Assembly (NCBI GenBank): GCA_020632415.1
Contig: JACKFO010000002.1
Span: forward strand, 711,918-775,917
Length of the DNA stretch: 64,000 nucleotides
Direction: 5' to 3'
From: Candidatus Nomurabacteria bacterium
GTDB lineage: Bacteria > Patescibacteriota > Patescibacteriia > UBA1558 > GWA2-36-10
Positions 30,410-63,701 of this stretch are shown piece after piece (positions within the stretch are counted from its first letter, which is position 1; the number at the start of each line of letters is the position of its first letter). A program made the position numbers and the translations under genes. The notes beneath the pieces are model-generated. The model made no database searches and had not been told where the DNA came from. It saw only the letters and a program-made list of their open reading frames with translations.

Positions 30410-31624
30410 TTATTTTATCTTAGCAAATTTTCTTTTACCGGCTTGAATGATATCATTAGGCTTGAGATTCAAGTCTTTTTCCCAGGACGAAACTTTTTCT
30501 TTGTTTAGTTTCATGCCATTGCCTTCGATTAAACGCCGAGCTTCATTTTTAGAATTAACAAATTTTAAAGTTATTAATAAATCAACTGGATTTATCTTTT
30601 TGTTTGTTAAATTAAATTCTTGAATTTGATCAGGATTTTTTTTGTTTTTAAAAATTTGTTCAAAATTTTCTCCAGCCTGTTTTGCCTGTTTTACTGAATA
30701 GTAAATAGAAACTATTTCTGTAGCTAGTCTAAATTTTAAATCACGTGGGTTTGTATCTTTTTCTAATTCTTTTTTTATTTCTTTTAATTCTCGATCATCT
30801 ATTTTTGTGCAAAGTTCAAATCCTGGTAAAATCATACCATCAGTCCAGGACATTACTTTGCCAAACATTTCATTTGCTGAATCAGAAAAGCTTAACATAT
30901 TGCCTTCTGATTTACCCATTTTTAGACCAGAGCTGTCAGTCAAAAGTTTCATGGTCAAGACAAATTTTTCTTGATTTAACAATTGCTTCATTAGAGTTCT
31001 GCCAGCCAGCATGTTAAAAGTTTGATCATTGCCACCGATTTCCCCATCTACTTTTAGCATTACTGAGTCATAAGCTTGCATCACAGGATACATTAGTTCG
31101 TGTAAGCTAATTGGCTTTTCTTCTTTAAGACGTTTTTGGAACATATCTCTTTCCAAAAGTTGTTGAGTAGTAAATTTTGATGACAAGTCTAAAATCTCAG
31201 CGAACTTCATTTTAGCAAACCATTTGCTGTTATAGCGGTACTCAGCTTTGTTTGAGCCGGTGAATTTGATAAATTTAGCCGCTTGGTTTTTATAGTCTTT
31301 AGCATTTTTTAAAACCTGCTGGCGAGTCAGTGGTTTGCGTGTGGCGTTTTTATCAGTCGGATCGCCAATTGTTGCTGTGAAATCACCGATTAAAATAATT
31401 ATTTTATGACCCAGTTCTTGCCATTGACGCAATTTTTCTAGTTCAATAGCATGTCCTAAATGTAGGCTTGGTCCGGTTGGGTCGATGCCATAGTAGATGC
31501 TTAGTTGTTTTCCAGATTTTAGTTGTTTTTCAAGGAAATCTCTTTTAGGGTAGATATTTTCTATTCCTCTTGACAAAAAGTGTTGAATTTTGTCTGAATC
31601 TGTATTAATCTTAGGCATAAACAA
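30410..31624 (-). CDS. tyrS: Tyrosine--tRNA ligase
   Basis: HIGH-motif region PTGPSLHLGHA, KMSKS-like KMGKSEGN and a C-terminal S4 domain. Confidence 0.9.
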   Translation of the reverse strand: MFMPKINTDSDKIQHFLSRGIENIYPKRDFLEKQLKSGKQLSIYYGIDPTGPSLHLGHAIELEKLRQWQELGHKIIILIGDFTATIGDPTDKNATRKPLTRQQVLKNAKDYKNQAAKFIKFTGSNKAEYRYNSKWFAKMKFAEILDLSSKFTTQQLLERDMFQKRLKEEKPISLHELMYPVMQAYDSVMLKVDGEIGGNDQTFNMLAGRTLMKQLLNQEKFVLTMKLLTDSSGLKMGKSEGNMLSFSDSANEMFGKVMSWTDGMILPGFELCTKIDDRELKEIKKELEKDTNPRDLKFRLATEIVSIYYSVKQAKQAGENFEQIFKNKKNPDQIQEFNLTNKKINPVDLLITLKFVNSKNEARRLIEGNGMKLNKEKVSSWEKDLNLKPNDIIQAGKRKFAKIK

Positions 31625-31667
31625 TAAATTTCTAATTTCTTATATTCAAATTATAGCGTATTTTTGC

Positions 31668-31673
31668 TATAAT
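31668..31673 (+). promoter_or_regulatory. -10 box TATAAT nine nt upstream of the PBP1A ATG (leaderless-type)
   Basis: tttttgcTATAATtcaaatactATG. Confidence 0.4.
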
Positions 31674-31682
31674 TCAAATACT

Positions 31683-55353: not shown

Positions 55354-55395
55354 AAATAAAAAACACTCCACAAGAAGTGGAGTGTTTTTTATTTT
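55354..55395. terminator. Bidirectional terminator between the zinc-ribbon gene and cspA
   Basis: Stem acactccac/gtggagtgt flanked by A- and T-runs. Confidence 0.6.
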
Positions 55396-55408
55396 TTAAC
55401 TTAAAGAA

Positions 55409-55606
55409 TTAAGCTAAAGTTACTTTTGTAGCAGCTTCACCCTTTGGGGTATCAGCGATTTCAAAAGTTACATTATCACCTTCACGAAGATCGTCAAAAT
55501 TAGCATCTACTAATTCGTTGGCGTGAAAGAATAAATCTTTACCGTCACCTTCAGGAGTGATAAAACCAAAATGTTTATTGGTTAATTTTTTGATTGTTCC
55601 TTGCAT
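55409..55606 (-). CDS. cspA: Cold-shock protein (CspA family)
   Basis: MQGTIKKLTNKHFGFITPEGDGKDLFFH. Confidence 0.9.
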   Translation of the reverse strand: MQGTIKKLTNKHFGFITPEGDGKDLFFHANELVDANFDDLREGDNVTFEIADTPKGEAATKVTLA

Positions 55607-55679
55607 AATATAGAAATCAAAGTTAATTAGATATAGAAGCTTGAAACCCGACTTTGATTTCTCTACTTGCTATATTGAT

Positions 55680-55754
55680 TGGTGACCCCACGGGGAATCG
55701 AACCCCGCTTGCCAGGATGAAAACCTGATGTCCTAACCACTAGACGATGGGGCC
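55680..55754 (-). tRNA. tRNA-Glu (anticodon TTC), CCA encoded
   Basis: Reverse complement ggccccatcgtctagtggttaggacatcaggttTTCatcctgg...ggggtcacca. Confidence 0.75.
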
Positions 55755-60452: not shown

Positions 60453-60555
60453 TCGTCGGGTACATTGATGAAACCAAGTAAACTGACAAGGGGTCAGTTT
60501 TTGGTTTAAAGTAACGTGAGAAAGATTGACTCACGTTAGCACGGAGGGAAGTTTC

Positions 60556-60816
60556 GTGAGTGCAGCAGCAGGCAAACAGAAGAAGCCGACAGCCTTCGAG
60601 AGACGGTCGCAGTTTCGCAAGGGCAAGACCTTGGATCAACTGAGCGAGGAGCAGATTTCGAACTTGCTCAGGGATTCCAAGACTTGCACCAACGCTCATC
60701 TGCGCGTCGACGGAAAGTGTATCTGGATTTCGTCAATCAACGGCACGGTCACCGGCTACGATTGTCGACGTCAGACACGTCAGTTCCGTCGGGAAGAATG
60801 CGAAGTCCTGATCTGA
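60556..60816 (+). CDS. Small basic Cys-containing protein encoded in a GC-rich island (GTG start)
   Basis: GGAGGG lies 7 nt before the GTG. The ORF is 87 codons at about 55% GC with GC3-rich codon usage, and a strong terminator follows. Confidence 0.35.
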   Translation: MSAAAGKQKKPTAFERRSQFRKGKTLDQLSEEQISNLLRDSKTCTNAHLRVDGKCIWISSINGTVTGYDCRRQTRQFRREECEVLI

Positions 60817-60841
60817 ACTTCTGGCCTCACGAGCGCGTCAC

Positions 60842-60878
60842 ACACTGTCGATCTTCGGGTCGACAGTGTCTTTTTTTT
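60842..60878 (+). terminator. Strong rho-independent terminator (UUCG tetraloop hairpin followed by T8)
   Basis: acactgtcgatc-ttcg-gggtcgacagtgt then tttttttt. Confidence 0.75.
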
Positions 60879-60934
60879 GACAAAATGAAGAAAATAGATT
60901 ACTTTTATAGTACAAGTAAATAAAAAACATTTGA

Positions 60935-61112
60935 TCCAAGATTTAATGTCCCTTGGAGAGTTGCTGAAAGAAATCTAAAGTTTAGAAAGTAGACTCAGTC
61001 GGGGTGCGCCCGTTATTGCGCTAAAATTAAGTGTCTCTTAGTTCAAGAGAAATTAAGGTGGTACCGTCAAGTTTTGACTTGACCCTTAAACGCAAATTAA
61101 TGCGTTTTTTAT
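60935..61112 (+). promoter_or_regulatory. T-box riboswitch leader of valS
   Basis: T-box core aaattaaGGTGGTACCGtc at 61051-61070, against the consensus AAUUAGGGUGGUACCGCG. A downstream terminator aaacgcaaattaatgcgtttttt sits at 61088-61110. Stem-I-like agagttgctgaaag and a candidate GUA specifier lie upstream. Confidence 0.5.
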
Positions 61113-61126
61113 TTTAAATAAAATTT

Positions 61127-63667
61127 ATGGATAAACAAGATAATTTTAATTTAGCCAAAGCTTACGAGCCACAAGAGTATGAGGCAGAGATTTATCGTCT
61201 TTGGGAGGAGTCAGGATTTTTTAATCCAGACAATTTATCTGAAGGCAAAGAGTCTTTTACTATTTCTATGCCACCACCAAATGCAACTGGAATTTTGCAC
61301 TTGGGTCATGCTTCGACCTTGGCTTATCAAGATTTAATGATTCGTTATCAGCGTTTACGTGGTAAAAAAACCTTGTGGCTACCAGGCACTGATCACGCGG
61401 CCATTGCTACACAAACTAAGGTTGAAAAAATTTTGGCTGAAAAAGGGGTGGATCGACATAGTTTAGGTCGCGAAAAATTTTTGGAAAAAGTCAAAGAGTA
61501 CGTGGCAGACTCTCAAGGCACCATTCGTAATCAAATTAGAAAAATAGGGTCTAGTTGCGATTGGTCTCGTGAGGCCTATACTTTTTCAGATAGTTTGTCT
61601 GTCGCGGTTAACGAAGCTTTTGTGCGCATGTATAACGATGGCTTGATTTATCGTGGCTATCGGATAGTAAATTGGTGTCCACGTTGCGCTTCGACTTTAG
61701 CTGATGATGAAGTGGAATACCAAGAACAGCTTGGTAAATTATATTACATCAAATACGGACCATTTGTTGTGGCAACAACTAGACCAGAAACAAAATTAGC
61801 CGATACTGGCGTAGCTGTAAATCCCGAAGACACTCGTTATCAAGATTATCTAGGACAAGTTTTAGAAATTGATCTAGCTGGTCATAAAATCAAAGTCAAA
61901 GTTTTTGCCGATGCGCAGGTAGATTCAGAATTTGGCAGCGGTGTAGTTGGAGTTACGCCAGCTCATAGCGCTGTTGACTATGATTTCGCTCAAAAAAATG
62001 ATTTAGAGATTATCAAATTAATTGATGAACAAGGAAAAATAATGTCTACTGGCGGTAAATATGCTGGTTTGACAGTTTTAGAAGCTCGTGAAAAATTTGT
62101 CAAAGATTTGGAAGCAGCAGGACAAATTGAAAAGATTGAAGATTTAGAAAATAATTTGTCCATTTGTTATCGTTGTGATACTCCGATCGAGCCTCTGACT
62201 TCTGAGCAATGGTTTGTGGCGGTAGACAAAAAAATTCCCGGTCGCGATCAGACTTTGAAAGAGTTGGCTATTCAAGCGGTTAAAAATAAAGAAATAAAAA
62301 TTGTTCCTGATCGTTTTTCCAAAGTTTATTATCATTGGATGGAAAATTTACACGACTGGTGTATTTCTCGACAAATTTGGTGGGGTCATCAGATTCCAGT
62401 TTGGTACAGCGAAGATCAAAAAATGATCGTGGCTATTTCTGAAGAAGATGCCTTAAAAAAAGCAGGTGGCCAAAAGATTGCTCGCGATCCAGATACTTTG
62501 GATACTTGGTTTTCTTCTTCTTTGTGGACTTTTTCAACTCTTGGTTGGCCAGAAAAAACAAAAGATTTAGATTTATTTCATCCGACAAGTGTGATGGAAA
62601 CGGGTTATGATATTTTATTTTTTTGGGTAGCACGCATGATTTTGATGTCAGAGTATTTACTTGAAAGTAAGCCTTTTGAAACTGTTTATCTTCATGGCAT
62701 GATCAGAGATAAAGAAGGTAAGAAAATGTCTAAGTCTTTGGGCAACGGCATTGATCCGATTGAGATGATCGAAAAATTTGGCACCGATGCCTTACGTCTT
62801 TCTTTGATTATCGGTTCAAGCCCTGGGGCAGATTTAAGGCTTTACGAAGAGAAAATTGAAGGCTACCGTAATTTTGTAAATAAACTTTGGAATATTTCTC
62901 GTTTTGTTTTTTCACAAGTTGGAGAAATAAAAATAACTGAAAATTTACCAAAAACAGAGACTCTAGCGGACGCTTGGATTTTAGCGGAGTTTAATTTATT
63001 GATTAAAGAAGTGACTGAAAATCTAGAAACATTCAAGTTTTCTTTAGCTGGTGAAAAACTTTATGAATTTACTTGGTCAAAATTCGCTGATTGGTATTTA
63101 GAGGTTGCTAAAATAGAAAAAAATAAAGATGAGATTTTGTTGTATATTTTGCCAAGGCTGTTAACTATTTGGCATCCTTTTACGCCATTTGTAACAGAAG
63201 TAATTTGGGAGCAATTTAAGTCTGATAAATTTTTGATGATTAATCAATGGCCAAAAGCAGATGAGTCAAATCAAGAAGCTCAGGAAAATTTTAAAGATTT
63301 TATTGACTTAGTAACTCAAATTAGAAATATTAAGGCGGAAAATAAGATTCCACCAGTTGAGTTTGTAGATTGTTATCTAGAAAGTCAAGTTTTGAGCTCT
63401 GCTGACTTAGAGGTTGTAGCAAAATTAGGACGAGTTAATTTAAAAACAGAAGAAATAACAGGGGAGAACTTTGCTTCTTTTAAGTCCCGTGGTCAAATCA
63501 AGGCTGCAAAGGCGATGACTGAAAAGGAGAAAGAGGATTTAGAAAAATATATTAAGTCCCTGGAAGCAAAGCTTGGTAACAAGGCTTTTGTTGAAAATGC
63601 TCCGCCAGAGGTAGTAGCAGATAATCAAAAGCGTCTTGAAGAAGCAAAACAAAAATTAGCGAATTAA
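61127..63667 (+). CDS. valS: Valine--tRNA ligase
   Basis: HIGH region PPPNATGILHLGHA, KMSKS, and a C-terminal coiled coil. Confidence 0.95.
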   Translation: MDKQDNFNLAKAYEPQEYEAEIYRLWEESGFFNPDNLSEGKESFTISMPPPNATGILHLGHASTLAYQDLMIRYQRLRGKKTLWLPGTDHAAIATQTKVEKILAEKGVDRHSLGREKFLEKVKEYVADSQGTIRNQIRKIGSSCDWSREAYTFSDSLSVAVNEAFVRMYNDGLIYRGYRIVNWCPRCASTLADDEVEYQEQLGKLYYIKYGPFVVATTRPETKLADTGVAVNPEDTRYQDYLGQVLEIDLAGHKIKVKVFADAQVDSEFGSGVVGVTPAHSAVDYDFAQKNDLEIIKLIDEQGKIMSTGGKYAGLTVLEAREKFVKDLEAAGQIEKIEDLENNLSICYRCDTPIEPLTSEQWFVAVDKKIPGRDQTLKELAIQAVKNKEIKIVPDRFSKVYYHWMENLHDWCISRQIWWGHQIPVWYSEDQKMIVAISEEDALKKAGGQKIARDPDTLDTWFSSSLWTFSTLGWPEKTKDLDLFHPTSVMETGYDILFFWVARMILMSEYLLESKPFETVYLHGMIRDKEGKKMSKSLGNGIDPIEMIEKFGTDALRLSLIIGSSPGADLRLYEEKIEGYRNFVNKLWNISRFVFSQVGEIKITENLPKTETLADAWILAEFNLLIKEVTENLETFKFSLAGEKLYEFTWSKFADWYLEVAKIEKNKDEILLYILPRLLTIWHPFTPFVTEVIWEQFKSDKFLMINQWPKADESNQEAQENFKDFIDLVTQIRNIKAENKIPPVEFVDCYLESQVLSSADLEVVAKLGRVNLKTEEITGENFASFKSRGQIKAAKAMTEKEKEDLEKYIKSLEAKLGNKAFVENAPPEVVADNQKRLEEAKQKLAN

Positions 63668-63671
63668 AAAA

Positions 63672-63701
63672 ATCACTCCTCAATTCGGGGAGTGATTTTT
63701 T
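63672..63701. terminator. Bidirectional terminator between valS and pilB
   Basis: Stem atcactcc/ggagtgat with flanking A- and T-runs. Confidence 0.65.

Follow-up and report, generated by a model that had tools for sequence, protein, structure and literature searches.

A reduced valine T-box leader, probably an attenuator, upstream of valS in a Candidatus Nomurabacteria bacterium

Results

A valine T-box leader precedes valS

The element described here is the leader of valS, the gene for valyl-tRNA synthetase (ValRS), in a 64,000-nt stretch of a Candidatus Nomurabacteria genome (assembly GCA_020632415.1, contig JACKFO010000002.1; "the window" in short). Judged from its sequence and from those of its relatives, this leader is almost certainly a real valine T-box. 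It probably represents a reduced subtype, specific for valine and for the Candidate Phyla Radiation (CPR), which most likely attenuates valS transcription. The T-box identity stands because of the E-value and full-length alignment obtained with the Rfam T-box model RF00230, the covariation found across a family of related leaders, and the match between the specifier codon and its cognate tRNA.

With permissive filters, RF00230 aligned to positions 60921-61090 over model positions 1-219, its full length, with 51.9 bits and an E-value of 1.2e-10 for a 401-nt region, or 1.9e-8 for the whole window on both strands. The gathering score of this model is 93. A default search therefore misses the window leader; at gathering scores, five tRNAs and nothing else were reported for the window. 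Seventy-five Stem I positions of the model are represented by 12 nt in the leader. The open reading frame (ORF) that follows on the forward strand encodes a ValRS of 846 aa (Pfam tRNA-synt_1, E 4e-135, with Anticodon_1 and Val_tRNA-synt_C). The T-box core, AAATTAAGGTGGTACCGTC, occupies 61050-61068, and a hairpin with U-tract, AAACGCAAATTAATGCGTTTTTT, fills 61088-61110, which leaves 16 nt up to the valS ATG at 61127.

An initial annotation, made from the letters of the window, had proposed a T-box leader before valS in a CPR-like genome, with the core, the hairpin and the U-tract at these places. All of this was borne out by the full-length model match, the ValRS domains and the host lineage (Patescibacteria group > Parcubacteria group), and the nearest 80 valS loci in a scan of species-representative genomes were all from Patescibacteria-type metagenome-assembled genomes. 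The RF00230 search proposed there as a check came out divided, with no match above the threshold of 93 and yet an alignment over the full model at a highly significant E-value. A sub-threshold score, like the lack of a mutually exclusive terminator/antiterminator fold, had been named as grounds for giving up the T-box. Both were found, and these grounds were too strict. The coordinates of the leader elements are collected in Table 1.

Table 1. Elements of the valS leader, the presumed regulated gene and the promoter-like region, with positions in the window.
Feature	Elements	Span	Strand	Basis
Promoter-like region	TTGACA 60867-60872, 17 nt, TACTTT 60890-60895, TATAGT 60896-60901	60867-60901	+	read from sequence, putative
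Stem I, K-turn-like base	C-stem 60927-28/60960-61; tandem GA 60933-34 + 60958-59	60927-60961	+	read from sequence; clear in window and L010, partly in L001
Stem I, hairpin	6-bp stem 60935-40/60952-57; 11-nt terminal loop 60941-51	60927-60961	+	compensatory changes
Specifier codon (predicted)	GUC (valine), then one unpaired nucleotide (C in the window)	60948-60950	+	12/12 invariance
Stem II	lower stem 60963-67/60995-99; upper stem 60974-77/60983-86	60963-60999	+	covariation
Stem II S-turn strands	AGAAA 60969-73; AGUAGA 60988-93		+	conserved letters, 12 members
IIA/B pseudoknot	IIA CGG/CCG 61000-02/61010-12; IIB GCGC 61006-09 with GCGC 61018-21	61000-61021	+	conservation, pairing
Stem III with flanks	purine string AAGUG 61029-33; Stem III 61034-39/61045-50; AA linker 61051-52	61029-61052	+	covariation
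Helix A1	UUAAGG/CCUUAA 61053-58/61084-89	61053-61089	+	Rfam alignment
Discriminator bulge, 7 nt	UGGUACC 61059-65	61053-61089	+	Rfam alignment
Helix A2	GUCAAG/CUUGAC 61066-71/61078-83	61053-61089	+	Rfam alignment
Terminator-like hairpin and U-tract	AAACGCA/UGCGUUU 61088-94/61101-07, 6-nt loop; U-tract UUUUUUAUUUU to 61115 (U6-A-U4)	61088-61115	+	terminator scan
valS	valine--tRNA ligase, presumed regulated gene	61127-63667	+	Pfam, sequence

A family of CPR valS leaders

Among the 80 valS loci of the species-representative genome scan, six (L001, L005, L010, L011, L016 and L037) carried the T-box core at a distance of 70-110 nt upstream of the gene, and their ValRS proteins are 56-74% identical to that of the window. 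In the remaining close relatives valS follows directly after tsaE, and in L002 it lies behind the same promoter-like sequence with no leader. A metagenome scan, run with a pattern of IIA hairpin, gap and core (two invariant blocks), sampled those leaders that keep this pattern. It returned 24 loci, which gave six further distinct CPR-type leaders (L081, L082, L085, L088, L090 and L095), all before valS, as well as GC-rich valS leaders and one metS-like leader that were used as canonical controls. Together with the window, 13 distinct CPR valS leaders were thus available, falling into about three sub-clades. A covariance model built from six members (R1) recovered all 13 in 740 kb at E <= 2e-14; nothing else of note was found there, and the GC-rich leaders matched only weakly. 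This model revealed no further members among the other 74 Patescibacteria valS loci and no second copy in the window.

In the 13-member model alignment, 96.5% of cells are standard pairs and 29 of 37 pairs have changed on both sides. The covariation score was 0.64, compared with 0.21 for shuffled alignments (0/500 reached the observed value) and <= 0.14 when the partners were slid. Across the family there is little or no variation in the specifier, bulge, S-turn and IIA. A MAFFT alignment of 12 leaders was good for the conserved blocks alone and was replaced by the model-based one. The latter misplaces Stem I in L037, L081 and L090, each of which has an additional hairpin, as well as the long L016 and L037 terminators.

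The extra hairpin lies between Stem I and Stem II (L081, 4158-4530; L090, 3708-4110; L037, 2711-2800), and in L037 it also contains AUGUC. L081 and L090 have >100 nt of unexplained sequence from the terminator to the valS start.

The relatives scored 45-62 bits with RF00230, and L011, L016, L037 and L082 gave no match at E <= 1e-3. Searches that apply the Rfam gathering score will accordingly miss CPR valS T-boxes. The same threshold also misses T-boxes outside the CPR, as the GC-rich valS leaders L086 and L097 reached ~60 bits; the metS-like leader L091 scored 113.9 bits.

Stem I, specifier and cognate tRNA

Stem I is a short hairpin with compensatory changes in relatives at 6/6 pairs. Across members it has 4-8 bp and a loop of 10-11 nt, with diverse arms (UCCAAG/CUUGGA, CUUAAG/CUUAAG, GUGCGG/CCGCAC and GGUACGG/CCGUACU). 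A kink-turn (K-turn) at its base is plausible in the window, where the two GA steps face each other above a C-stem of AC/GU. According to the RF00230 alignment, the distal platform of Stem I, consisting of the AG bay and the distal loop for the tRNA elbow, is absent from the window leader.

The predicted specifier is GUC at 60948-60950. It is found in 12/12 full-length members at the same position of the terminal loop, always before ValRS, and is followed by G (six members), A (four) or C (two). The contig of L085 encodes a tRNA-Val with anticodon GAC, discriminator base A73 and CCA; its anticodon is complementary to GUC and its ACCA end to the UGGU of the bulge. The initial annotation had instead suggested a GUA specifier and a GA-rich region resembling Stem I. 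Upstream of the core, the leader contains GTA just once (60989-60991), where it belongs to the AGUA of the S-turn in Stem II; the GA-rich region is the 5' strand of Stem II.

Stem II, pseudoknot and discriminator

The lower stem of Stem II covaries at 5/5 pairs. The S-turn letters are invariant or nearly so over 12 members, and the AGUAGA strand aligns to the conserved AAGUA of the Rfam model. IIA is invariant, and the IIB pseudoknot is paired at 94% compared with <= 57.5% when slid; its outer pair is GC in four members, UA in three, GU in two and AU in one.

Stem III covaries at 6/6 pairs and is flanked in the window leader by the purine string RRRxG and by AA, as in T-boxes. In the discriminator, the inner four pairs of A1 and the bulge are invariant, and A2 covaries at 6/6 pairs. 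All members extend A1 by two pairs past the canonical AAGG/CCUU, and the outermost of these covaries (UA in seven, AU in three, GC in three). A1 is a weak helix, with just two G-C pairs.

The terminator-like hairpin abuts helix A1

The hairpin at 61088-61107 passes the terminator scan. A hairpin followed by a U-run is present in 13/13 members, with stem sequences that differ and 5/5 modelled pairs that covary, and a tail of the form U5-6-A-U3-6 recurs over the family. Terminator-like sites are enriched in this genome (29, with 17.0 +/- 4.3 expected), strong ones stand at gene ends, and a NusA gene is encoded. With 7 bp and -6.3 kcal/mol, the leader hairpin is much weaker than the gene-end terminators of the window (11-18 bp). 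Across members, 16 to >100 nt separate the hairpin from the start codon; because this spacing exceeds 100 nt in L081 and L090, the hairpin is not a sequestrator of the ribosome-binding site. By sequence inspection, no Shine-Dalgarno-like sequence was found in the 16 nt preceding the valS ATG, or anywhere across 61090-61126.

Terminator and antiterminator abut without a spacer in 13/13 members. In the window, 61088-61089 are the only nucleotides common to A1 and the terminator, 61089 being at once the 3' nucleotide of A1 and position 2 of the terminator stem. In 13/13 members the last A1 nucleotide (A, U or C) finds a complementary base within A1 (U, A or G) and another in the 3' arm of the terminator (U, A or G); its neighbour, corresponding to 61088, has a terminator partner in 12/13. 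Both pairings of the shared nucleotides thus appear to be maintained.

This arrangement differs from the canonical one. The initial annotation had expected terminator and antiterminator to be mutually exclusive, and such alternatives did not appear: the minimum-energy fold of the window leader forms both helices side by side with 2 nt shared, and both are present together in the minimum-energy folds of 10/13 family members. In the controls L086 and L097, by comparison, the folded terminator consumes the 3' strands of A2 and A1. When the antiterminator was enforced in CPR members, the terminator went from 6 to 5, 6 to 5, 7 to 4, 7 to 4, 12 to 11, 7 to 6, 13 to 13, 9 to 9 and 11 to 9 bp at a cost of 0-1.1 kcal/mol, the folds of L001, L010 and L016 being uninformative as these were trimmed at a U-run inside the terminator loop (they are covered by the junction analysis). 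The same constraint in the canonical controls L086, L097, L099 and L091 reduced the terminator from 12, 11, 12 and 8 bp to none at a cost of 7.1-15.6 kcal/mol.

Other partners for these strands were also considered. Neither folding nor inspection by eye found a conserved alternative helix between the antiterminator 3' strand (61078-61087) and downstream sequence. Pairing of the IIB 3' strand UUGCG (61017-21) with the CGCAA of the terminator 5' arm was rejected as not conserved, since by inspection the window allows it and L001 and the L016-type members do not. An A-tract at the 5' end of the leader (60908-60918, AAAUAAAAAAC) matches the terminator G and U-tract (61104-61114, GUUUUUUAUUU) with 11 nt of perfect complementarity, which 0/300 shuffles reproduced; the complementarity extends over 7-8 nt in L001, L010, L011, L016 and L088 and is at chance level in the other relatives. 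As the missing competitor of the terminator, this long-range pairing was rejected as well, being at chance level in about half of the relatives and unable to act while the U-tract is inside the polymerase.

Comparison with known T-boxes

With the class I T-boxes (RF00230; Bacillus subtilis tyrS and glyQS), the window leader shares the UGGNACC bulge between A1 and A2, Stem III with its flanking purines, the Stem II S-turn, the IIA/B pseudoknot, a specifier that matches the regulated aminoacyl-tRNA synthetase gene, and a hairpin with U-tract before that gene. Class I leaders differ in having a long Stem I with the AG bay and distal-loop elbow platform, which the window leader lacks, and in carrying the specifier in an internal rather than a terminal loop. 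Their terminator reuses the antiterminator 3' strand, whereas the overlap is 2 nt in the window compared with 8-12 nt in the controls.

The second point of comparison is class II, the translational ileS T-boxes found in Actinobacteria such as Mycobacterium tuberculosis and Nocardia farcinica (Sherwood et al. 2015, following the descriptions in PMC7583486 and PMC11297988). Their truncated Stem I, the codon near the 3' side of its terminal loop and the discriminator architecture are also those of the window leader, and both kinds of leader are presumed to depend on the S-turn purines of Stem II and on the IIA/B pseudoknot. They differ in gene and codon (ileS/AUC, not valS/GUC), in lineage (Actinobacteria, not Patescibacteria), and in having a Shine-Dalgarno/anti-Shine-Dalgarno sequestrator helix where the window has a hairpin with U-tract.

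The GC-rich valS T-boxes (L086, L094, L096, L097, L099 and L104; metagenome contigs of 61-72% GC) also precede valS, and share with the CPR family an identical IIA hairpin (CGGGGUNCGCCCG) and core (AAGGUGGUACC). This likeness arises by construction, because the search pattern required both. Unlike the CPR family, they have a long Stem I and a canonical platform, and in L086, L097 and L099 the terminator takes 11-12 nt of the A2/A1 3' strand and vanishes when the antiterminator is enforced.

Discussion

Proposed mechanism

From the leader sequences, transcription attenuation is the likely read-out of this T-box, with the weak hairpin and U-tract, 16 nt before the start, acting as an intrinsic terminator. 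The anticodon of uncharged tRNA-Val(GAC) would pair with GUC in the Stem I terminal loop, by homology to the actinobacterial ileS T-boxes, and its free 3' end, ACCA, would pair with UGGU in the 7-nt bulge, which belongs to the discriminator (Stem III, A1 and A2). Because A2 is a self-contained hairpin, the tRNA would be able to act only on A1, the bulge and the tertiary packing of Stem III, so that any coupling to the terminator would have to run through the A1/terminator junction. For the way in which it does so, we put forward steric coupling at the junction as a tentative proposal, to which we give somewhat less than an even chance. The tRNA would lock the six-pair A1 together with Stem III and so withhold the two shared nucleotides from the hairpin, placing at the 5' foot of the terminator a T-box:tRNA complex that is rigid and bulky. 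The lowest pairs of the hairpin could then not close in the RNA polymerase exit channel, and the unclosed foot would allow read-through into valS. When uncharged tRNA is lacking, the weak A1 would fray into a flexible linker, the hairpin would be completed and transcription would stop. The wider claim, that this is an expression platform with no mutually exclusive helices, in which a tRNA-locked discriminator blocks the adjacent terminator sterically or topologically and is combined with a truncated, elbow-less Stem I, may hold, although we consider it rather unlikely.

A related arrangement is found in the ribonucleic antiterminator (RAT)/terminator systems of the BglG/SacY/LicT type, where a ligand-stabilised upstream structure overlaps the 5' foot of the terminator and prevents its completion. 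There the ligand is a protein and the overlap comprises several nucleotides, whereas the valS leader would use a tRNA and 1-2 nt. The likeness serves as a lead only.

Several observations speak against this reading. Thermodynamics predict no switch for the CPR leaders. Enforcing the antiterminator in the window costs 0.2 kcal/mol and keeps 5/6 terminator pairs. Deleting both shared nucleotides takes 1.4-3.8 kcal/mol from the hairpin (-6.3 to -4.6 in the window), and the U-tract still follows; in L082, where 1 nt is shared, a 13-bp terminator of -20 kcal/mol would barely be affected. The steric proposal presumes that closure of the hairpin foot in the polymerase exit channel matters for intrinsic termination. 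The three junction types track the three sub-clades, and count as only about two evolutionarily independent events. The alignment behind the covariation counts was fitted to the model, and the key parts, Stem I and the junction, were therefore derived anew from the sequences themselves. As for the tRNA-binding parts, the GA/GA motif is clear in the window and L010 and partly in L001 only, most relatives having UA, CA or UU in place of the 5' GA. A G.U wobble at the base of A2 has been described as the main aminoacyl (steric) sensor of T-boxes (PMC7583486); in the window this pair is G61066-C61083, and over the family it is GC in seven members, UA in two, AU in one, GU in one and otherwise in two. 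The wobble is not universal in valS T-boxes, because the controls L086 and L097 have A-U there. No tRNA-Val gene was found in the 64-kb window. Finally, L011 (2796-2966) is without Stem III, its purine string running straight into AAUUAAGG, and Stem III has been reported to be indispensable for binding of the tRNA 3' end.

Alternative explanations

The same leader can be read in other ways. If tRNA sensing were genuine and the hairpin a constitutive leaky attenuator or an RNA stabiliser, the tRNA complex would control translation initiation, processing or decay of the valS transcript. We regard this as improbable. In its favour, translational T-boxes are where a short Stem I is otherwise known (PMC11297988, PMC7583486), nearest-neighbour thermodynamics reveal no competition between terminator and antiterminator, and the A-tract at 60908-60918 is complementary to sequence close to the start codon (61104-61114). 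That complementarity, however, is lost to chance level in about half of the relatives, no Shine-Dalgarno sequence or anti-Shine-Dalgarno pairing is available to be sequestered, and the hairpin stands at varying distances from the start. A hairpin unlinked to the T-box would also need neither the zero-spacer junction nor the doubly complementary nucleotide that are kept in 13/13 members.

Decay offers another account, namely that the leader is a relic of a T-box, inherited or acquired from a Terrabacteria-type ancestor, which has lost the distal Stem I, the switching platform and all regulation and survives just as a structured leader with a leaky terminator. Its patchy distribution over the 80 species representatives, with close relatives in which valS comes straight after tsaE or shares the promoter but lacks a leader, would suit such a history, as would the missing G.U sensor pair, the K-turn missing in many members and Stem III missing in L011. 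Yet compensatory changes are seen in every helix over lineages in which ValRS is just 56-74% identical, and the specifier, bulge, S-turn and IIA are invariant; purifying selection of this kind on ~190 nt would be unexpected for a relic in genomes under strong reduction, which makes the relic very unlikely. The canonical class I T-box, with mutually exclusive helices and a GUA specifier, is hardly credible at all. The core and the downstream hairpin with U-tract are indeed present, and GUA does code for valine, but GUA lies in the AGUAGA S-turn of Stem II while the invariant GUC is in the Stem I loop, and the distal platform of Stem I is absent. Moreover, both helices occur together in minimum-energy folds, and they overlap by 1-2 nt compared with 8-12 nt in the four controls, where enforcing the antiterminator abolishes the terminator. 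Attenuation of valS through the A1/terminator junction remains our preferred reading, at the strengths given above.

Genomic context

The gene order in the window is tsaD, tsaE, a GC-rich ORF of 96 codons, the T-box leader and valS, whose stop codon is followed by a strong terminator at 63667-63701. The promoter-like layout upstream of the leader, TTGAC(A/T)-N17-TACTTT-TATAGT, is kept in L001 and L010 and is similar in L011, L088 and L002; a consensus promoter scan did not flag the region 60867-60901. L002, which has no T-box leader, carries the same TTGACT box before valS, which suggests a promoter that stayed in place while the leader downstream of it was lost or gained.

A GC-rich island (60520-60870; 54% GC, with 31-37% in the flanks) separates tsaE from the valS leader. 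It contains the 96-codon ORF (60526-60816), for which Pfam gave no match, and a strong 12-bp terminator (60842-60869) forms its end. In L010 and L093 an ORF with weak similarity (29% identity over 72 aa; small database, E 0.003) occupies this position upstream of the T-box, and L002 has a GC-rich segment with a strong terminator in the same place. The island ORF is possibly a small acquired gene.

The sole other aminoacyl-tRNA synthetase gene within the window is tyrS (30410-31617, reverse strand). No T-box was detected in the ~62 nt of divergent intergenic sequence (31618-31679) that it shares with a PBP1-type gene. T-box control is therefore not general for the synthetase genes of this genome.

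A sub-threshold Rfam match to the cspA-thermoregulator (55354-55694, reverse strand; 37.6 bits, gathering score 78) looks ordinary. It covers the gene for a 65-aa cold-shock protein (55409-55606, reverse strand) next to a tRNA-Glu, and an 18-bp bidirectional terminator (55354-55394) follows that gene. Among the public records used, L003, L004, L008, L009, L010 and others are titled "uncultured Gammaproteobacteria bacterium" and have a clearly Patescibacteria-like valS locus; they are probably mislabelled.

Significance

The published range of T-boxes comprises Firmicutes, Actinobacteria, Chloroflexi, Deinococcus-Thermus and two delta-proteobacteria (PMC2494555), and regulation in Patescibacteria was described as virtually unknown in a 2024 perspective (PMC11665869). 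A full-text literature search combining T-box with CPR, Patescibacteria, Parcubacteria or Saccharibacteria returned no paper, with most subscription journals outside its coverage. Automated annotations may already list CPR T-boxes, and a first report can therefore not be claimed. What is new is a CPR-specific valS T-box in which a short Stem I is combined with a terminator that abuts the antiterminator rather than competing with it.

The phyla with published T-boxes belong mostly to the Terrabacteria, and the presence of the element is compatible with a Terrabacteria affinity of the CPR. The initial annotation had called it taxonomically informative. This is reasonable, but the information is weak because only 6/80 Patescibacteria valS loci carry a T-box, and with so patchy a distribution horizontal transfer may have played a part.

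Reviews associate a short Stem I with translational control, and a long Stem I, which docks the tRNA elbow, with the kinetic demands of transcriptional control. The CPR valS family joins a short Stem I with a terminator. It is apparently without the usual helix competition of riboswitches, and yet each helix is under selection, and so it lends itself as a natural test for the blocking of termination by nothing but the position of an RNA with its ligand bound. If the non-competitive coupling is true, T-boxes with a short Stem I would not be inherently translational, despite the elbow contact thought to be needed for fast co-transcriptional capture of tRNA. Leaders of ~170-190 nt would also rank among the smallest T-boxes that contain Stem II, and would be useful for structural work and as parts for the genetic tools under development for CPR bacteria. 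In these ultrasmall bacteria, such a T-box would be a minimal sensor of tRNA charging that needs no protein. As the organism is unable to make amino acids itself, a sensor of tRNA-Val charging would directly read out the nutrient supply that it receives from its host.

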